Assembly: GCA_029547025.1 (NCBI GenBank)
Contig: JAKPQA010000226.1
Span: 26,586-90,585, forward strand
Direction: 5' to 3'
Source of the DNA: Armatimonadota bacterium
Lineage (GTDB): Bacteria > Armatimonadota > Zipacnadia > UBA1398 > JAKPQA01
Length of the DNA stretch: 64,000 nt
This document shows, piece by piece, positions 52,006 to 60,945 of the stretch. Within the stretch, counting starts at the first letter, position 1. The number at the start of each line of letters is the position of its first letter. A program made the translations under genes and the position numbers. The notes beneath the pieces are model-generated. The model ran no database searches, was not told the origin of the DNA, and saw only the letters and a program-made list of their open reading frames with translations.

Positions 52006-53240
52006 CCGGGCTTGCCGTCGAGAGACAGCGGCGGCGCAACTTCGCCCTCCATGTGTGGGAGGGCGCCATCTACTTCGCCGGCGTCGAGTTCGCGAGTGCC
52101 ACATCGATCATTCCGGTGCTCCTCGAGCGCCTCGGTGCCTCCCGCGCGATCATCGGCCTCGCCGCGAGCTTCACCTATGTTGGCACGGCTGCTCAGATCC
52201 TGGGCGTGCCTGCGATGGAGGCGATACCCCGTCGCAAGCGCGTGCTGGTCCGCCTGGGTCTCTTCATGCGGTTGCCCTACGCCGTGATGGCTGTGGCCGT
52301 AGTGCTGCTCGCCACCCGAGCCCCGAGGGCCTGCATCGCCACGGTGCTATGGCTGACTCTAGTCACCAGCCTCGCCGGGGGCCTGACCACCCCGGCCTGG
52401 CTGGACCTTATCCGCAGCACCATCCCCCGAGCCCGGCTGTCATCGCTGTTCGGTCTCCGGCACGCATTGGGGGGCGCGCTCATCGCCGGCACGGGGGCCA
52501 CTGCGACGCTGGTTCTCACCACGCTGGCGTTTCCCGCGAGCTTTGCGGTCCTCTTGGGCTTGGCCTGCGCGGTGACTATGATCTCCTGGGCCCTGTTCGC
52601 AAACGTTCTCGACTCGCCACCTCACCGGCCCAGCCGCACTCGTCCCGGATTCAGGGCTCATATGCTTCAGCTCGTGGCTGACGTGCGTGGCGATGTCGTT
52701 TTCCTCAGACTGCTTCTCGCTCGGTGCCTCTACCTGGTGGGACGGGCGGGCGAGGCTTTCTACACCGTCTGTGCCCTCGAGCGGTTCCACAGTCGGGACG
52801 CCGCGGCGGGCACCTTCATGCTGACCATGGCCCTGGCCCGCTGCGCGAGTGCTCTGTTGTTCTCGAAGCTGACCGATCACATCGGACGACGCGCGACCGC
52901 CGCGCTCTCGTCGGTGCTGGGCGCGGCAGCGGGCATCCTGGCCATCGTGGCGCCCAACGAGAGCGCCTTCCTCGGGGTCTTCGCGCTGGCCGGGGTCTGC
53001 TTCAGCACGGGGCAGATCGCCGGGACGTCGCTCATCATGCAGCTCGCTCCCCGCGAGGGGAGCGTGGGCTTCTTCAGCATGCTTCTGATGGGCCAGATCC
53101 CTGTGATGATTGCGGCCCAGATTGGAGGAGGGTTCCTGGTGGACCATGCCGGCTTCCCGGCCCTTTTCTCGAGCACGGCCGTCGCGGGGCTCCTCGGGGC
53201 CGTCGCGTATGCGGCACTCCCATCCAGGGAGGACGCATAG
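52002..53240 (+). CDS. MFS transporter
   Basis: 12 TMs in two halves; LTDHIGRR loop motif; GTGA overlap with the upstream gene. Confidence 0.9.
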   Translation: MTGLAVERQRRRNFALHVWEGAIYFAGVEFASATSIIPVLLERLGASRAIIGLAASFTYVGTAAQILGVPAMEAIPRRKRVLVRLGLFMRLPYAVMAVAVVLLATRAPRACIATVLWLTLVTSLAGGLTTPAWLDLIRSTIPRARLSSLFGLRHALGGALIAGTGATATLVLTTLAFPASFAVLLGLACAVTMISWALFANVLDSPPHRPSRTRPGFRAHMLQLVADVRGDVVFLRLLLARCLYLVGRAGEAFYTVCALERFHSRDAAAGTFMLTMALARCASALLFSKLTDHIGRRATAALSSVLGAAAGILAIVAPNESAFLGVFALAGVCFSTGQIAGTSLIMQLAPREGSVGFFSMLLMGQIPVMIAAQIGGGFLVDHAGFPALFSSTAVAGLLGAVAYAALPSREDA

Positions 53241-53281
53241 CTCTGAGCCGCCGGGTCCCCCACCGCGCCTCGGCCCGCGGT

Positions 53282-54523
53282 CTATTCCCCATCGCCCTGC
53301 GGGCCGACCGACGCCAGCCACGCCCTTGCCCTCCCCGCGTCACTGAGCTCGCCCGCGAGCTGGGCGACGCGGGTCTCGCGCAGGAGGCGTCCGATCTCGG
53401 CTCCCTGGGCGCCTGTGAGGGCGATGACCTCGGCACCCGAGACCAGCGGGGCCTCGGAGAGCCTGGGCGCCACCACGCTTGCCACGGTGTCCGCGAGCGC
53501 GAGGGCGTTCGCGGCTTCAGTGGGCCGCGCGGCGGCACGGAGCACGAGACCCCTGAGTGCCGCCTCGCCATGATCCGCGCAGAGCTCCGCCGCCGACCGA
53601 GCCAGACTGGCCGGGGCCTGCGGGAGGCCACCGTCGGCAACCCGATGGATCGCGCGGATCGACCGCAGGACACGCTCCGAGAGCCGCAGCACTTGGGCGA
53701 CCCGCCGGAGCCCTGCCGGCGACGCGCCGTGGAGGAGTGCGGCCAGCGCCATGGCGTGGTCTACCCGGAGGCCCAGGGGCGCGCTCGCCGCCACACAGCG
53801 TGCGAACCGGACCGCCGCCGCCGAGGCCTCCAGGCCGGCCAACCCCACAATGGGCCCGAGTACGCCCACATCCGCCATCTGGCGCAGCAGCGCGTCAGCC
53901 TGCACGAGACCCAGCACCCGGAGCAGCTCGTCGCGGATCCGCTCTCCGGCGGGCTCGACCGCACGGTGCGCCGCCAGGCGTATGGCGGACAGTGTGTCCG
54001 GCTCGATCTGAAGGCCGAGTTCGCCCCCGAGCCGGAACGCGCGGATCAGCCGCAGTGGGTCGTCGTCGAAAGCCCGCGGCCCTGCCATTCGGAGCACACC
54101 GGCTTCGAGGTCCGGCTGACCGCCCAGGGGATCCAGCAGCGCGTCCGACGCATCCGGCGCCAGCGGCTGGGCCATGGCATTGCAGGTGAAGTCGCGCCGC
54201 GTCAGATCCTCAACGATCGTGTTGCCTCGAAGGCCGCAGACGTCCAGAACCAGGCGCCCCGCGCCATCGGACCCAGGCGCGAACACGATGCGTAGCGTGG
54301 GCGGGGCGTCATGGAGACGTACGCACGGCACGCCGGCCGCGGCAGCGTAAGCGAAAGCGAGCTCGGTTGCCGAGGGCGGGACCACGACGTCTACATCGTC
54401 TGATGCACGGCCGAGCAGCCGATCCCGAACGAAACCCCCCACCAACCAGGCGGCGCAGCCCCGGACCCGGCACAGCTCGATGAAGCGCCAGGCCCGCGGA
54501 TCGAGCTCCGTCGACGGGCCCAA
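53282..54523 (-). CDS. Class II tRNA nucleotidyltransferase, predicted CC-adding type, without HD domain
   Basis: LVGGFVRD..DDVD, EDLTRRDFTCNAM, DPLGGQPDL, DDPLRLIRAFR, GERIRDEL; short flexible loop. Confidence 0.85.
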   Translation of the reverse strand: MGPSTELDPRAWRFIELCRVRGCAAWLVGGFVRDRLLGRASDDVDVVVPPSATELAFAYAAAAGVPCVRLHDAPPTLRIVFAPGSDGAGRLVLDVCGLRGNTIVEDLTRRDFTCNAMAQPLAPDASDALLDPLGGQPDLEAGVLRMAGPRAFDDDPLRLIRAFRLGGELGLQIEPDTLSAIRLAAHRAVEPAGERIRDELLRVLGLVQADALLRQMADVGVLGPIVGLAGLEASAAAVRFARCVAASAPLGLRVDHAMALAALLHGASPAGLRRVAQVLRLSERVLRSIRAIHRVADGGLPQAPASLARSAAELCADHGEAALRGLVLRAAARPTEAANALALADTVASVVAPRLSEAPLVSGAEVIALTGAQGAEIGRLLRETRVAQLAGELSDAGRARAWLASVGPQGDGE

Positions 54524-54529
54524 GCCCCC

Positions 54530-55267
54530 TCACCCCACGGTCTTTCGTGCCACCGCGATCAGCCGGGGGGAATCGAGTGTCGGCGGCAACCCATCGAACC
54601 CGCCATACCACGACTCGGCTTCGAGACCCACCCGGCGAAGCAGCACACCCAGCTCGGTTGGTGTGTACGCTCGGATGCTCGTATCCCTCTCGATTCTCCC
54701 TTCAGCGGTCAGATAGGTGACGTGGGAGCCAATTCGGCCGGCGATGAGGTCGTATTGCCGTGCATCCAGCAGCAGCCCACACGGCACCTCGTGCCAGTCT
54801 CGGGGACGGTAGTTGCGCGCCAGCCAGAACGGGCTCATGGTGTCGAGTAGGAGCGCGGCGCCGGGCTTCAGCGCTCCAGCGATGGCCCGCAGGAACTGCT
54901 CATTCCCGGCCTCATCCATGTAGCCAAAGGCGGTGAACATGTTGATCGCGGCGTCGAACTCGGCGTCGAACCGCATCTCGCGGACGTCCTGGTGGACGTA
55001 GCGCACCACGGGCTCCTGAGCCTGCCCGCGAACGAGACTCGCCGCGGACTGGTCGACACCGACGACGTCGAAGCCGCGCCGGGCGAGTTCCCGGCAGTGC
55101 CGGCCCTCTCCGCAGCAGGCGTCCAGAACCCGCGCGCCGGGCGCCAGCTGCAGGGTCTGGACGATGAAGTCCACCTGCTCGGCCGTCACTTGCGCCGAAG
55201 CGGCCGCGCCCACCCAGTTATCCAGGTACCAGTCGTCGAAGAAGGACCTCCACCAGTCGTCTGCCAT
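54530..55267 (-). CDS. Class I SAM-dependent methyltransferase
   Basis: VLDACCGEGRH, VVGVDQS, QDVREM, FDAAINMFTAFGY, LKPGAALLLD. Confidence 0.92.
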   Translation of the reverse strand: MADDWWRSFFDDWYLDNWVGAAASAQVTAEQVDFIVQTLQLAPGARVLDACCGEGRHCRELARRGFDVVGVDQSAASLVRGQAQEPVVRYVHQDVREMRFDAEFDAAINMFTAFGYMDEAGNEQFLRAIAGALKPGAALLLDTMSPFWLARNYRPRDWHEVPCGLLLDARQYDLIAGRIGSHVTYLTAEGRIERDTSIRAYTPTELGVLLRRVGLEAESWYGGFDGLPPTLDSPRLIAVARKTVG

Positions 55268-55270
55268 CGG

Positions 55271-57664
55271 CTACCTCCCCCGCAAGATGACCCACATGCG
55301 GCCCGTGCGAGCGCCATCGCGAACGTGCGAGTAGAACAGGTCGGGCCGGCACGAGGTGCACAGCCCGGCCTCCATGATGCCGCGGCGCGGGACCCCCGCT
55401 TCCGCCAGCTGGGCAGCGTTCTCCGCCGTCAGATCGAGGGCGTGTCCGTCGCCGTCAGGTTTGAGAAGGTATCGTCCGGAGCCCGGCGGCTGCTTAAGGG
55501 GATGCTCGGCCTCCTGCGGGATGTAGTAGCAGCACGGCCCGATGCAGGGGGAGAGGAACGCGGCGCAGTCCTCGGGCCGGGTGCCAAAGTGCCGACCCAT
55601 CGCCTCGAGCAACCGGAGTGCCATGCCGGCCGCGGCGCCCCTCCAGCCCGAGTGCGCGGCCCCGCGAGCTCCTGTCCGGAGGTCATGCACCAGGACCGCC
55701 TGGCAATCGGCCACCTGGATGGCCAGCGCGGGCCCCTCCGCCGAGGTTACCATCGCGTCCGCCTCGCCGAGCGAGGACTCGAGGCATGACACACCCGGAT
55801 CGACCCGCAGCACATCGGTGCCATGCACCTGCCGCGCGAACGCAACGGGTCCCCCCAGGGCCTCGATGACCCGCCTCCGGTTCTCGATGACACACGCGTC
55901 GTCGTCCAACACCGCGAGCGAGAGGTTCAGGCTGGCGTAGGGGCCCTCAGAGACACCGCCGCGGCGGCAGGTTACCACCACCTCGGCCCCACCCAGGTCG
56001 TACCGCAACAGGCTCGGGCCCTCGCCGACCGACGGAACGGAGGGACCCCGACCCGCGCAGGGGGCGTCACCGGGCGGGCCCCCCCACGCCCGCTGCCAGC
56101 GCCGCCAGAGCACCTCGCGAGCCACTCCCGTGTCGATGATCTCCCACGGAAGTGCCTCGTCGCGGCCGCGCGCGCGGGTTGCCTCGGCAACCAGGTCGAT
56201 GCCACTAAGCCTCGCGGCTCGGACGTAGTCGGCATAGGTGCCGTCGGTCTCGCTGACCCGGCACAGAACTTCACCCCAGCGCCGATCACCCCGTGCCAGC
56301 GCGGCCTCCACGATCGACCACTTGGCACCCTCGCCCGAGACCTTGGGCGACCCGGCGATCCCGTGTGCGCCGCGTCGCACCTCGGCCAGCTTCGCCCGCA
56401 GCGCCTCCGGGGGAGCCATGGCCACCCACTGAAGCGGTGTGCCTGGCTTGGGGACAAACGAGTTCACGCCCACGCTCACACGGAGTCCTCGCGCCGCCTC
56501 GGCGACCTCGCCGGCCAACTCGAGCAGCCGGTCTACTTCGTCGTCGCCAGCCAGTGGGAGGCCGACCATGAAGTAGAGCTTCAGCCGGGCGAACCCGGCG
56601 CGCGTCGACCTCTCGGCCATGCGGAGCAGGTCATCGGGTGAGAGTCCCTTCCGGACGGCGCGCGCCACTCGCGGATCGCCCGTCTCCGGGGCCAGGGTCA
56701 GTGTGCGCTGTCCGCACTGCGCCAGTGTTCGCAGCACCCGATCCGAGAGCGGCTCTGAACGGCTGGCCGAGATCGAGATCTGCTTCCCCTGGGCGGCCAA
56801 GTCCACGATGATGCGCTCGATGTCCGGATGGTCGGAGGCGGCGGCCCCCAGAAGACCGACCCGGCCGAACGGTTGGGCCAGAGCGATGATCTGGTCGGCC
56901 GGCCGGAACCGCAGGGGCCCGAAGCACGTGGGGACCACGCAGAACAAGCACCCGCGGCCACAGCCGCGCGACACCTCGACGAGCCCCAGATCGGCGAACT
57001 CCGTGTGCGGCGTGAGGATGGTCGTCGCGGTGTCGTGCACCGTGAGATCGCCGGCCACGCGCCGCCGGATCGGCCCGTCCCGTGGGAGTGACGGCACGTA
57101 CACGCCCGGGATGCCCGCCAGGGCCCGCAGCACATCGCCTCGGGCGGCCCCGGCCATGCCGCGTAGCGCCGCCAGCACCTCGGGGATCATCTCGTCACCC
57201 TCGCCGACGCAGACGAAGTCCACGAGGTCCGCCAAAGGCTCGGGGTTGATCGAGCAGCAGGCGCCGCCGACGGCCACGAGGGGCCATCGCTCATCGCGTT
57301 CCGCCTGGCGGAGCGGAACACCACTGAGGGCGAGTATGCGCGCGACGTTCACGTAGTCCAGCTCATAGGAGACGCTGAAAGCGAGGAGATCGGCATCGGC
57401 GGGCGCCATACCGAAGTCCAGGGTGCGGAGCCGACGCGGAGACCGAGAGACATCGGCATCGGGCAGGAACAGCCGGTCACACGACCAGCCCGCCGTCTCG
57501 GCCGCAATCTGGCGGATGGTCTGGAAACCAAGGTTCGACATGCCCAGGCGGTAGAGGTTGGGGTAGGCGAGCACCATCACGCGCCCGGCGGCCGCGCGCT
57601 TCTGGGGCCGAAGCCAGGTCTCCTGAAGATGTGGTGCCCTCTTGCGCACGGCGCTCCGTCCCAT
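55271..57664 (-). CDS. Fusion: B12-binding-like/radical SAM (COG1032 type) + YfiH/PgeF (DUF152) purine nucleoside phosphorylase domain
   Basis: N: YPNLYRLGMSNLG, AFSVSYELD, VGGACCSINPEP, EVSRGCGRGCLFC, TLAPETG, LKLYFMVGLP, FVPKPGTPLQW. C: GPYASLNLS, QVHG, QVADC, AHSGWRG, SPCIGPCCY, CTSC..FYSHVRDG..GRM. Confidence 0.88.
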   Translation of the reverse strand: MGRSAVRKRAPHLQETWLRPQKRAAAGRVMVLAYPNLYRLGMSNLGFQTIRQIAAETAGWSCDRLFLPDADVSRSPRRLRTLDFGMAPADADLLAFSVSYELDYVNVARILALSGVPLRQAERDERWPLVAVGGACCSINPEPLADLVDFVCVGEGDEMIPEVLAALRGMAGAARGDVLRALAGIPGVYVPSLPRDGPIRRRVAGDLTVHDTATTILTPHTEFADLGLVEVSRGCGRGCLFCVVPTCFGPLRFRPADQIIALAQPFGRVGLLGAAASDHPDIERIIVDLAAQGKQISISASRSEPLSDRVLRTLAQCGQRTLTLAPETGDPRVARAVRKGLSPDDLLRMAERSTRAGFARLKLYFMVGLPLAGDDEVDRLLELAGEVAEAARGLRVSVGVNSFVPKPGTPLQWVAMAPPEALRAKLAEVRRGAHGIAGSPKVSGEGAKWSIVEAALARGDRRWGEVLCRVSETDGTYADYVRAARLSGIDLVAEATRARGRDEALPWEIIDTGVAREVLWRRWQRAWGGPPGDAPCAGRGPSVPSVGEGPSLLRYDLGGAEVVVTCRRGGVSEGPYASLNLSLAVLDDDACVIENRRRVIEALGGPVAFARQVHGTDVLRVDPGVSCLESSLGEADAMVTSAEGPALAIQVADCQAVLVHDLRTGARGAAHSGWRGAAAGMALRLLEAMGRHFGTRPEDCAAFLSPCIGPCCYYIPQEAEHPLKQPPGSGRYLLKPDGDGHALDLTAENAAQLAEAGVPRRGIMEAGLCTSCRPDLFYSHVRDGARTGRMWVILRGR

Positions 57665-57765
57665 TCAGTCGGGCGTCTCTCCAGAGTAGGCTGGCACCTG
57701 GCGCCCGGCAAGGGGCTGCGGGGCCCGCCCGCGAAGGATAGGGACCCGGGCCGCGACATCACGCG

Positions 57766-58590
57766 TTGATTCGCGTAGGTCGGCCGTTCGGACCGACGTC
57801 ATTCCGGAAGGGGGTGGCCCCGCTGCGACCGGTCTGGCTGATCGCGATCATCCTGCCGCTTCCCGTAGCAGCAGACTCACCTGAGCGATCCCTTGGTCCC
57901 GTCGAGACCCGCCCGGCCACGGCGTACGTCTCGCGATTGCTGAGCCCCGCGCGCCCGGTTGCCTCGGGGAAGCGGCTGGATCTCTGGGTCGCCCGCGAAC
58001 TCTCGCCGCTCTTCGATGGTGAGCTGGTCGCCGAGGAATGGCGCGGTGCCCTCGAGCTGAACGTCCCCTGGGCGACCCAGGAGACGACGGCGAAGGGGTT
58101 CCCGCCGCGGGTGGTGTTCTGCCTGGCCCGACAGCGGGATGCCGATGGCTTACTGCTCGGATGCATCGTGCAGGATGCGACACGCGAGACCACGTTGGCG
58201 CCACGGCCCCAACCGGCTTCGGCCGAGGGCGCGACGGCCCCGACGGATGAACTGTCTCGCTGGGCGGGGGTCGATCATCTGTTCGTCGGCCTGTACGCCA
58301 AGGGCGCAGAACGTCCCGTATTGGCGAGCCTCCGCCTGTGCCGCGGCGCCACGGTGGCGGAGGACGGCCTACTCGTGCGACAGGGCGCCGTGGGAGAGAT
58401 TGCGGAGACCGGTTGGGCGGCCGAGCTCCAGCTCTCGAGTGGCGCCCTGGACATTGCCGACGGAGACGAGGTCGGCCTATTCGTCCAGGTCCATAACGGG
58501 GCCGGGCCTGACGCCGCCTGGCCCGCGGGTGCCCGGGCTGACGACCCGGCCACCTGGGGGCGCATGGTCACCCGCCGGCCCGGCGGCTAA
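57766..58590 (+). CDS. Probable exported protein with a CBM9/DOMON-like C-terminal domain
   Basis: Hydrophobic leader (alternative GTG start at 57814); GWAAELQL..GDEVGLFVQV..WP..DDPATWG. Confidence 0.6.
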   Translation: MIRVGRPFGPTSFRKGVAPLRPVWLIAIILPLPVAADSPERSLGPVETRPATAYVSRLLSPARPVASGKRLDLWVARELSPLFDGELVAEEWRGALELNVPWATQETTAKGFPPRVVFCLARQRDADGLLLGCIVQDATRETTLAPRPQPASAEGATAPTDELSRWAGVDHLFVGLYAKGAERPVLASLRLCRGATVAEDGLLVRQGAVGEIAETGWAAELQLSSGALDIADGDEVGLFVQVHNGAGPDAAWPAGARADDPATWGRMVTRRPGG

Positions 58591-58671
58591 CGCCCCGGCT
58601 CCGCGTCGCCCAGCGGCAGGCCCTCCGCCACGATGCGCCGAAGTCACGCTCGGAACAGCTAGGGAGGGACC

Positions 58672-60945
58672 ATGGTGACGGGACTGTTGGCAGTGGCCTT
58701 GGTGGGGCTGGTCGTGGCCGGATCCGGTGCCTTCGGGATGACTCTTGCCCATGACGGCAAAGCGAAGTGCCCCATCGTGGTGGCGCGGAGCGCCATCGCT
58801 GCCGAACGGACGGCGGCCCAGGACCTGGCGTCGATCCTGCACCAGGTCACGGGGGCAACGTTCGAGATCCGCGCCCCCGGCGAGGTGGCCGAGGGCGAGC
58901 GCCAGATCATCGTGGGTCCCTCGGCGCGCACGCGGCACCTCGCGCCCGATGTCGATGTCGCGGCATTGGGCTCCGACGGGATCGTCATCCGCACCGTGGG
59001 CGACCGGCTCCTGCTGTTTGGCGGGCGCCCTCGCGGGACCATCTATGCCGTCAACACCTTCCTCGAGGATGTGGTGGGATGCCGATGGTGGACGTCCGCC
59101 GAGAGCACGATCCCGAGGAAGCCCACGCTCGAGGTCGCGGGGCTCCACACGGTCTACACGCCGAAGCTGTTCAGCCGCGAGGTGTTCTTCAAGGACGCCT
59201 TCGAGCCCGTGTTCGCGAACCGGCTGAAGACCAACGGGCACTTCTCGCCGATCCCGCCGGAGCGGGGTGGGCATGTAGAGCTCATCGGCTGGTGCCACAC
59301 TTTCTGGCCTCTGCTGCCGCCGGAGAAGTACTTCGCCCAGCACCCAGAGTGGTACAGCGAGATCAACGGGAAGCGCACCTATGAGGGCGCACAGATCTGC
59401 CTCACCAACGAGGAAGCGCGGAAGGAGCTCACCCGCAATGTGCTCGCGCTTCTCCGGGCCCAGCCTGACGCCCGGCTGATCTCGGTGTCCCAGAACGACT
59501 GGGGCGGGCAGTGCCAGTGCGCGGCGTGCCGGGCGGTGGAGGCCGAGGAAGGCTCGCCCTCGGGCCCGATCATCCGCTTTGTCAACGCCGTGGCCGAGGA
59601 CGTCGAGCGGGAGTTCCCCGATGTGCTGGTCGAGACCCTGGCCTATAGCTATACGCGCAAGCCGCCGGCGAAGGTGCGCCCGCGCGACAACGTGGTGGTG
59701 CGGCTGTGCAGCATCGAGTGTGACTTTTCGAAGCCGCTCTCGAGCGAGGCCAACCAGGACTTCCTGGCGGACATCGAAGCCTGGGGAGCCATCGCGAAGA
59801 ACCTCTATATCTGGAACTACGTAGTCAACTTTGCCAACTTCCTGTGGCCCCATCCGAACCACAAGTCGTGGGCCGACGACGTCCGGCTCTTCGTCGATCA
59901 CGGCGCGGTGAGTGTCTTCGAGCAGGGCGACGCCTACTCTCACGGTGGCGACCTCAACGAGCTGCGGGCCTGGGTGATGGCACACCTGCTGTGGGATCCC
60001 TCGCGCGACAACGACGCGCTCATCGCCGAGTTTGTCGAGGGCTACTACGGCCCCGCGGCGCCCCACCTCATGCGCTACCTCGACATCATGGATCGCGCCG
60101 TCCAGGACTCGCGGACGCGACTGACGTGCTTTGTGCCGACTACCACCGGCTGGCTGAGCCTTCCGGCGCTGAATGAAGCCACCCAGGCCCTCCGGGACGC
60201 CCTGGCCGCCGTCGGGGCCGACGCGACGCTCAACGCGCGGGTGCGGCGGTTCAGCCTGCCCGTGCAGAACGTGTGGCTCAGCCGGTACCACGAGCTCAGG
60301 CGGGAGGCCGAGGCCACAGGGCAGCCCTTCCTCGGTCCCGACAACGCGGCCGACGGTTACGCGGCCTTCGAGGCGGCACTGACCGAGTTCGGCACGGAGT
60401 TCTACGGCGAGGGCCGACCGCTGGATGGCTACCTGCCCGCGCTCAAGCGCCGATGTGCCCCGCGTAAGGAGCCGACACCCCCGGACGAGTGCGCCGGGCT
60501 GGCCGATGACCAGTGGCTGGACGTCCAGGACACCGAGTTCATGCTCCACGGCGCCGGACAGCTCTCGGACTTGGTCGATGATCCGGCCGCGTCCGACGGC
60601 GGCGCCGCCTGGATGCCGGGCCGCATCCCCGATTGGGCCGTCCAGTGGCACCCGCAGCAGGCGAGCCTGTTCGGCCAGCGGTGGCACGTGTACGTCGTCG
60701 CACGATGCGATCCGGCCGCCGACCAGGGCAGCGCATTCCAGATCGGCCTGTACGACGGCCCGAACCGTATCGGGCTCGCCCAGCAGACGGTGTCGCTTGC
60801 CGACGCCGGTGACGGCGCGTATCACACCTATGACCTGGGCGTTCACGAGCTCCAGCCTGGCCGGTATGTGTGGGTGGCTCCGCCGAACAGCACCGTGGTG
60901 AACGCGGTCTACGTCGACCGCGTGTTCGTGGTGCGTGAGCCGTAG
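58672..60945 (+). CDS. DUF4838 domain protein (GH67-like N-domain, putative carbohydrate-active) with C-terminal CBM-like module
   Basis: Signal peptide; ERTAAQDL..DGIVIR..GTIYAV..GCRWW, CHTF, HPEWY, QICLTN, SQND..CQC..C, TLAYSYT, YIWNY, RAWVMAHLLWDP. Confidence 0.88.
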   Translation: MVTGLLAVALVGLVVAGSGAFGMTLAHDGKAKCPIVVARSAIAAERTAAQDLASILHQVTGATFEIRAPGEVAEGERQIIVGPSARTRHLAPDVDVAALGSDGIVIRTVGDRLLLFGGRPRGTIYAVNTFLEDVVGCRWWTSAESTIPRKPTLEVAGLHTVYTPKLFSREVFFKDAFEPVFANRLKTNGHFSPIPPERGGHVELIGWCHTFWPLLPPEKYFAQHPEWYSEINGKRTYEGAQICLTNEEARKELTRNVLALLRAQPDARLISVSQNDWGGQCQCAACRAVEAEEGSPSGPIIRFVNAVAEDVEREFPDVLVETLAYSYTRKPPAKVRPRDNVVVRLCSIECDFSKPLSSEANQDFLADIEAWGAIAKNLYIWNYVVNFANFLWPHPNHKSWADDVRLFVDHGAVSVFEQGDAYSHGGDLNELRAWVMAHLLWDPSRDNDALIAEFVEGYYGPAAPHLMRYLDIMDRAVQDSRTRLTCFVPTTTGWLSLPALNEATQALRDALAAVGADATLNARVRRFSLPVQNVWLSRYHELRREAEATGQPFLGPDNAADGYAAFEAALTEFGTEFYGEGRPLDGYLPALKRRCAPRKEPTPPDECAGLADDQWLDVQDTEFMLHGAGQLSDLVDDPAASDGGAAWMPGRIPDWAVQWHPQQASLFGQRWHVYVVARCDPAADQGSAFQIGLYDGPNRIGLAQQTVSLADAGDGAYHTYDLGVHELQPGRYVWVAPPNSTVVNAVYVDRVFVVREP

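Follow-up and report, generated by a model that had tools for sequence, protein, structure and literature searches.

A radical SAM enzyme fused to a PgeF domain in an Armatimonadota bacterium, and the recurrence of its subfamily beside ftsZ and pgeF

Bacterial PgeF (also named YfiH or YlmD) is physiologically a cytoplasmic amidase of UDP-N-acetylmuramic acid (UDP-MurNAc) carrying Ser or Gly (PMC12280929, PNAS 2025): it strips the L-Ser or Gly that MurC has mis-ligated to UDP-MurNAc (PMC8844914, PMC12280929). In E. coli numbering, which is used throughout for PgeF residues, H71, D89, D106, C107 and H124 are all essential for this editing (PMC12280929), Q69 and R235 read the amino acid, and W127, R128, Y227 and R228 hold UDP-MurNAc (PMC8844914, PMC12280929). 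Bacterial PgeF also has purine-nucleoside phosphorylase (PNP) activity, which requires more than 500-fold more enzyme, is independent of the catalytic triad, persists after mutation of all editing residues and is associated with no phenotype (PMC12280929). The related protein FAMIN (LACC1) splits 5'-deoxyadenosine (5'-dAdo) to adenine and deoxyribose-1-phosphate, and YlmD and YfiH cleave methylthioadenosine (MTA), in vitro (PMC6978800); the vertebrate homologues do not have the peptidoglycan-editing activity of the bacterial ones (PMC12280929). We analyse here a gene in which a PgeF domain is joined, in a single frame, to a radical S-adenosylmethionine (SAM) enzyme. It lies on the minus strand, at positions 55271 to 57664, of a 64,000-nucleotide stretch from an Armatimonadota bacterium (GenBank assembly GCA_029547025.1, contig JAKPQA010000226.1, positions 26,586 to 90,585), called 'the window' below. 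With modest confidence, we favour the reading that this is a bifunctional protein, formed from merged neighbours, which has kept PgeF editing and whose radical SAM half acts in the same cell-wall-precursor or division-linked process.

The fused frame and its history

The open reading frame (ORF) runs from an ATG start to a TAG stop and encodes 797 aa; other gene callers start at a GTG (57647-57649) or an ATG (57575-57577), giving 792 or 768 aa. From the N-terminus, and always on the minus strand, it comprises a Rossmann/B12-binding-like domain (residues 46-191, 57092-57529; Pfam Radical_SAM_N2, 129.9 bits), a radical SAM core (residues 229-384, 56513-56980; Pfam Radical_SAM, PF04055, 70.3 bits), a helical extension that closes the radical SAM enzyme at its C-terminus (residues 385-530, 56075-56512), a Gly/Pro/Ser-rich linker (residues ~526-551, 56012-56089) and a PgeF/YfiH/YlmD domain (residues 565-793, 55274-56011; Pfam Cu-oxidase_4, PF02578, the family of PgeF, YfiH and DUF152, 219.1 bits, E = 7e-65, cut-off 22.9). 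The first two matches are likewise above their Pfam cut-offs, and the B12-binding family PF02310 is sub-threshold (28.3 bits, cut-off 32.1). The helical extension was delimited with the NCBIfam profile TIGR03960 and an AlphaFold2 (AF2) model, and the linker with the sequence and the models. The radical SAM half covers positions 32-580 of the 605 of TIGR03960, the extension reaching position 580, and scores 291.6 bits against a cut-off of 462.3. The PgeF equivalog TIGR00726 gives 138.7 bits, marginally under its cut-off of 141.15, for a domain that is embedded in a fusion. The radical SAM signature CGRGCLFC (CX3CX2C; residues 235-242, 56939-56962) and the PgeF motifs QVHG (612-615), ADC (652-654) and AHSGW (670-674) were all recovered; these Pfam and motif matches are far beyond chance. 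The preliminary description of this DNA, made from its letters alone, had reported one 797-aa frame with a complete radical SAM enzyme, a YfiH domain with an intact His-Cys-His triad and a Gly/Pro linker holding a run of seven G. Each of these points is borne out: the strand is minus, the triad is located at H614, C654 and H671, and the run (G7; C on the plus strand) lies at 56079-56085 inside the linker.

The same description cautioned that one extra G in this run would end the radical SAM frame at the TGA of 56067-56069, which is correct. The fusion might then be an assembly or sequencing artefact, in which a miscounted homopolymer merged two genes, and one ENA contig of the window's species does show a frameshift, with ORFs of 573 and 212 aa replacing the fusion. 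The 573-aa product, however, stays in the fused frame through the linker and its G7 run and diverges only past ...GGVSE, and a 1-nt deletion in the GGG at 55944-55946 reproduces this contig exactly. Because that deletion sits inside the PgeF domain, the split contig is an error or a pseudogene variant and not a two-gene arrangement, and a two-gene reading of it was rejected. The fused frame, with an identical linker, is shared by at least four independent assemblies of the window's species, members of one 90% cluster: an NCBI/ENA version of 797 aa (three contigs), a Logan version of 792 aa, a JGI version of 768 aa (three contigs) and an NCBI fragment (358 aa) extending across the linker. The same fusion, 792 aa long, occurs in a second species at 77% identity (below, the 77% relative), in ENA, Logan and JGI data (3 + 15 contigs, at least 18 in all), despite a linker of different sequence. 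We conclude that the fusion is genuine, as the preliminary description had supposed, and give an artefact almost no credence.

Comparison of the two fused species indicates that both halves are under purifying selection, dN/dS being 0.18 in the radical SAM half and 0.23 in the PgeF half (dS approximately 0.7). The linker evolves fast and is relaxed (dN 0.57). In the full-length structural model both domains are well folded, and residues 531-548 of the linker are disordered, with a predicted local distance difference test (pLDDT) score of 35-40. The predicted template modelling score (pTM), 0.91 when the radical SAM domain is modelled by itself, falls to 0.70 for the full-length protein. Because the tether is disordered and the full-length pTM drops in this way, no fixed interface between the halves is predicted, and the models describe two domains joined by a disordered tether of about 25 residues.

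An exhaustive HMMER search over 1.84 billion cluster representatives confined the radical SAM::PgeF architecture to one 50% cluster. The only other full-length two-domain protein was that of the 77% relative; the remaining matches were radical-SAM-only proteins of 450-630 aa. No published account of such a fusion was found in the literature searched, and the preliminary description likewise knew of none. A more distant relative, at 54% identity (below, the 54% relative), has two genes instead, a radical SAM gene of 525 aa and a pgeF of 266 aa, the stop of the first overlapping the start of the second by 11 nt, and separate adjacent genes are also found in four genomes of the same order (G001-G004) and in one of another family of the class (G010). 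Because these genomes keep separate adjacent genes, the fusion is a recent and lineage-restricted joining of two translationally coupled neighbours, which would have belonged to the division or 'ylm' neighbourhood and would have lost their stop/start overlap. Two separate genes in close relatives had been named beforehand as a finding that would speak against the fusion: they are present only in more distant relatives, at 54% identity or less, and not in the 77% relative, which has the fused gene.

Long proteins with a PgeF domain fell into only four architectures, the present one and three singletons. One singleton is a PolyA_pol::PgeF protein of 633 aa (P0203), which heads a ylmE-sepF-proC-yggT-lspA-PseudoU_synth_2 run (L119 778-6140; one JGI contig). 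Another joins Methyltransf_28 (NDUFAF7-like) to PgeF, in 624 aa (L120 759-2633; one JGI contig). The third, PgeF::MurL (P0204), has 752 aa with MurL_N and MurL_epimerase_C and is directly followed by a MurD-like ligase (L121 6001-9553, on a 129-kb contig). Its position beside this ligase is an independent tie of PgeF to Mur chemistry. It resembles the window's protein as a rare case of PgeF joined to an adjacent enzyme, but its partner is a known peptidoglycan-precursor epimerase, whereas that of the window is an orphan radical SAM enzyme.

The radical SAM subfamily and its place beside ftsZ and pgeF

The radical SAM half shares with the TIGR03960 family the succession of Radical_SAM_N2, radical SAM core and C-terminal helices, as well as the CX3CX2C motif. 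It differs from that family in scoring under the cut-off, in belonging to a separate clade, and in having ftsZ and pgeF neighbours where the true family has DUF2344 and RNase E/G. Since the same genome encodes a true TIGR03960 protein elsewhere (605 aa, 744 bits, on another contig, C39), the fused radical SAM is a paralogue. The true TIGR03960 gene, DUF2344 and RNase E/G lie in a row on one strand (C39 19919-24164); this DUF2344 gene is the only one of the genome, and the fused enzyme has no DUF2344 partner. Around that locus no cell-shape genes were found, DUF2344 and RNase E/G being the only informative neighbours; the canonical paralogue thus stands among RNA-processing genes, the short one with ftsZ and pgeF. 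A scan of named reference genomes for the radical SAM subfamily gave 80 loci. Most of the representatives sampled from these reach 350-470 bits on TIGR03960, below its cut-off, and in the tree the subfamily forms a clade (SH-aLRT support 100) that is sister to true TIGR03960. The position of the window's radical SAM in this tree, together with the best named relatives of KdsA, points tentatively to Armatimonadota as the probable phylum of the organism.

Across 47 family members, C235, C239 and C242 are the sole invariant Cys. Because the CX3CX2C triplet holds the only invariant Cys, no auxiliary cluster is indicated in the subfamily, and the radical SAM half looks like an active, single-cluster enzyme of an uncharacterised subfamily that is sister to TIGR03960. 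For the radical SAM domain by itself the AF2 model is confident (pLDDT 91.3, pTM 0.91), including the N-terminal domain. Its nearest solved folds in Foldseek are MgmA, AprD4, MiaB/RimO, CysS and OxsB, in all of which, as here, a radical SAM barrel comes after a Rossmann-like N-domain (Foldseek probability 1.0); the model also resembles MtaB. The template-modelling (TM) scores are only 0.5-0.64 and the identities 13-18%, and the subfamily has no conserved auxiliary-cluster Cys. The likeness seen in the model is generic, a Rossmann/B12-like N-domain with a radical SAM barrel, and as a search for substrate clues it returned class-level matches only. These neighbours include both B12 users (MgmA, CysS, OxsB) and non-users (AprD4, MiaB). 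The literature searched for TIGR03960, DUF2344 and TIGR03936, and for radical SAM enzymes with ftsZ, the division and cell wall (dcw) cluster or UDP-MurNAc, yielded nothing of relevance apart from the papers on PgeF and FAMIN.

In Gram-positive bacteria the dcw cluster ends with the 'ylm' cluster, ftsZ-ylmD(pgeF)-ylmE-sepF. The subfamily enters this order from both sides. At 18 of the 80 named loci, in Chloroflexota and Negativicutes (Anaerolineae, Caldilineae, Dehalococcoidia, Pectinatus, Acidaminococcales and one uncultured), pgeF lies directly downstream of the radical SAM gene on the same strand; it is the only recurrent downstream neighbour, and past it come YlmE/YggS, SepF and ProC. At 24 other loci (22 Desulfobacterota, one Ignavibacteria, one uncultured), ftsZ lies directly upstream, at 5-431 nt. 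Because ftsZ recurs upstream and pgeF-YlmE-SepF-ProC downstream, we place the subfamily in a slot that lies between ftsZ and pgeF in the tail of the dcw/ylm cluster. Relative to the known cluster, then, the Chloroflexota and Negativicutes loci keep the order pgeF-ylmE-sepF-proC behind the radical SAM gene and the Desulfobacterota keep ftsZ before it, the difference being the extra gene that occupies the slot. The radical SAM gene is directly upstream of pgeF in the window's class too, and the adjacency of the two recurs in three phyla and on three or more deep branches of the tree of the radical SAM. No paper on this placement was found in the literature searched. In the window's family, the radical SAM-pgeF pair has left the ylm cluster; in the window itself the pair is also fused and has a methyltransferase and a PolyA_pol gene behind it.

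Within the window's class, the short radical SAM paralogue is present in approximately 37 of 41 genomes. Obligate coupling, as might be read from phyletic co-occurrence, was rejected, the radical SAM being found in most relatives with or without pgeF; because it is kept in approximately 10 of the 13 genomes of the class in which pgeF is absent, the coupling is facultative. The short paralogue is interrupted by one in-frame stop, TAG or TGA, in four related genomes (G005:C194:3158-4729, G006:C128:7169-8653, G021:C124:10493-12058 and G028:C303:16740-18236), and is divided between two frames in G008. Such copies could be pseudogenes, sequencing errors or cases of recoding.

The gene order bears on a further explanation, according to which the fusion is an accident: two operon neighbours, co-regulated with growth or division, were joined by a frameshift and tolerated, and are biochemically unconnected. 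Such a history would fit the disordered linker and the absence of a confident interface in the models, as well as the fact that each gene is widespread without the other. The ancestral 11-nt overlap would make the joining a one-step event, and PgeF is also found fused to whichever gene is its neighbour (PolyA_pol, Methyltransf_28, MurL), each time as a singleton. On the other hand, adjacency in at least three deep branches of the tree and three phyla is far beyond the usual span of random neighbours, and the fusion has survived to a dS of about 0.7 with both halves constrained. We therefore regard an accidental fusion as somewhat unlikely, although it is the strongest competitor of the bifunctional reading.

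The PgeF half and the by-products of radical SAM chemistry

The PgeF half is a full domain, whose best match among the solved PgeF, YfiH and YlmD structures (6t0y, 1t8h, 7f3v) is YlmD (E = 7e-38). It differs from these proteins by its fusion to a 545-residue radical SAM enzyme, by a TIGR00726 score just under the cut-off and by the replacement of Arg228 by Val, which is weighed below. The equivalents of the five catalytic residues are all kept: H614 (H71), D636 (D89), D653 (D106), C654 (C107) and H671 (H124). So are the recognition residues Q612 (Q69, the specificity residue), W674 (W127), R675 (R128) and R789 (R235); the position of Y227 is occupied by His, as in active YlmD. Counted over 23 radical-SAM-linked PgeFs, the catalytic residues and W127 are conserved in all 23 and Q69 in 22. 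The residues that contact purines behave differently: the purine-contacting Arg (YlmD R59; E. coli R51) is present in 12 of the 23, and the gatekeeper His (YlmD His47) in only four. The window's protein keeps the former, as R596, and has Ala instead of the latter. As in the described systems, the domain is a single copy: it is the only PF02578 match of a genome in which MurC and a mur cluster are present. On these residues, the PgeF half is most likely still a peptidoglycan-precursor editing amidase. It would act as a Cys-His-Asp amidase taking wrongly added L-Ser or Gly off UDP-MurNAc, so that errors of MurC are kept from the peptidoglycan.

The preliminary description had suggested another function for the PgeF domain, that of a built-in nucleoside phosphorylase or deaminase, which would clear the 5'-dAdo (or MTA and S-adenosylhomocysteine, SAH) released by the radical SAM half and so relieve product inhibition. 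The in vitro activities of FAMIN on 5'-dAdo and of YlmD and YfiH on MTA (PMC6978800) speak in its favour, as does the retention of R596. FAMIN itself, a multifunctional purine nucleoside enzyme of vertebrates that acts in vitro on MTA as well as on 5'-dAdo, resembles the window's protein in its DUF152 fold, in its triad and in the extra region at its N-terminus, but this region is unrelated to radical SAM enzymes. A SAM-dependent methyltransferase lies in the operon, a singleton Methyltransf_28::PgeF fusion exists, and an accessory role would suit the facultative co-occurrence. Against these points, the PNP activity of the bacterial enzymes is weak, with the enzyme excess, independence of the triad and lack of phenotype already mentioned (PMC12280929), and it is the residues for UDP-MurNAc-amino acid, not the purine contacts, that are most conserved. 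The genome already has a bona fide MTA phosphorylase (MTAP) and two paralogues. Moreover, pgeF is linked to one radical SAM subfamily only, in the ftsZ/ylm context; the 1.84 billion representatives held no other radical SAM::PgeF architecture; and approximately ten related genomes have this radical SAM without pgeF. By-product removal is thus poorly supported, and we consider it improbable.

The local operon and the significance of the fusion

The fused gene heads a tight operon on the minus strand. Three nt after its stop comes a generic class I SAM-dependent methyltransferase (245 aa, 54530-55267), followed after 6 nt by a nucleotidyltransferase of the PolyA_pol family (413 aa, 53282-54523). 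The PolyA_pol gene also follows pgeF in the 54% relative; the methyltransferase separates the two in the window's species and in the 77% relative alone, and is absent from that position in the 54% relative. The PolyA_pol protein is far under every CCA/PcnB equivalog cut-off (best 88.8 against 290), and a second, stronger PolyA_pol gene lies elsewhere in the genome, within a 946-aa frame (C314 18600-18980). Judged from these scores, the operon copy may be specialised, for example for CC- or A-addition. On the other side of the fused gene, a divergent ORF on the plus strand (274 aa, 57766-58590) has no Pfam or NCBIfam match and is kept in position in both relatives, at 68% identity in the 77% relative and 33% in the 54% relative. 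It is adjoined by a 757-aa protein (58672-60945, plus strand; DUF4838, 342.7 bits) that appears unrelated to the fusion. A search of the window and of the 5' region of the fusion for Rfam families, cobalamin and SAM riboswitches among them, found none, and a promoter and terminator scan of 52800-58800 gave nothing above shuffled expectation.

This operon might be taken for an RNA- or nucleotide-modification module, in which the radical SAM, the PgeF-type hydrolase, the methyltransferase and PolyA_pol act on a tRNA, another RNA or a nucleotide substrate. The three genes are closely spaced, and PolyA_pol follows pgeF in the 54% relative and is fused to it in P0203. RNase E/G accompanies the canonical TIGR03960 paralogue, the fold of the radical SAM is similar to those of MiaB, RimO and MtaB, and the change of Arg228 to Val alters the UDP-binding site. 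The links to PolyA_pol and the methyltransferase, however, are confined to close relatives of the window, and in genomes of the same order and of other phyla the radical SAM-pgeF pair stands without them. P0203 heads a ylmE-sepF-proC run, that is, the same division cluster, and the fold likeness is generic, at TM scores of 0.5-0.64. Such a module is, in our estimate, highly doubtful.

Several observations nevertheless weigh against the bifunctional, cell-wall-linked reading that we prefer. The UDP-stacking R228 is Val (V781) in the fused protein, in the 77% relative and in the unfused PgeF of the 54% relative, and with this substitution the nucleotide part of the substrate could differ in the window's clade. 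Neither gene requires the other: the short radical SAM is retained in most of the class genomes without pgeF, as described above, and most bacteria have pgeF without this radical SAM. Gene order in the dcw and ylm clusters often reflects co-regulation and not shared chemistry. The canonical TIGR03960 paralogue sits with RNase E/G, and the methyltransferase and PolyA_pol genes of the window's operon point towards RNA. The putative link of the radical SAM family to the cell wall derives from gene context and from the fusion. From the residues of the PgeF half and the recurrent gene order, we infer that PgeF still edits, and that its radical SAM partner acts in the same cell-wall-precursor or division-linked process. 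Because the tether is disordered and no confident interface is predicted, the fusion itself would chiefly enforce 1:1 co-expression and proximity of the two activities.

A bolder extension of the bifunctional reading is that the short TIGR03960-like radical SAM is an unrecognised and widespread part of peptidoglycan-precursor metabolism or division, sharing the UDP-MurNAc-linked pool of PgeF. It might, for example, carry out a radical-mediated modification or a second quality-control step, which the PgeF amidase would then resolve. We hold this to be unlikely as matters stand; if true, it would give the Mur pathway or the division cluster its first radical SAM step.

PgeF has only recently been established as a proofreading amidase of peptidoglycan precursors, and the radical SAM enzymes that resemble TIGR03960 form a large group of orphans. 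The comparative evidence disfavours the idea of a self-cleaning radical SAM enzyme. The fusion and the gene order instead hint at a cell-wall or division role for this orphan family, its position by ftsZ and pgeF being the most useful clue to what it does. A selected fusion, together with the order ftsZ, radical SAM, pgeF, ylmE, sepF, provides 'Rosetta-stone' grounds for a testable hypothesis on function, and the fused protein is a natural single-polypeptide construct with which that hypothesis may be tested.

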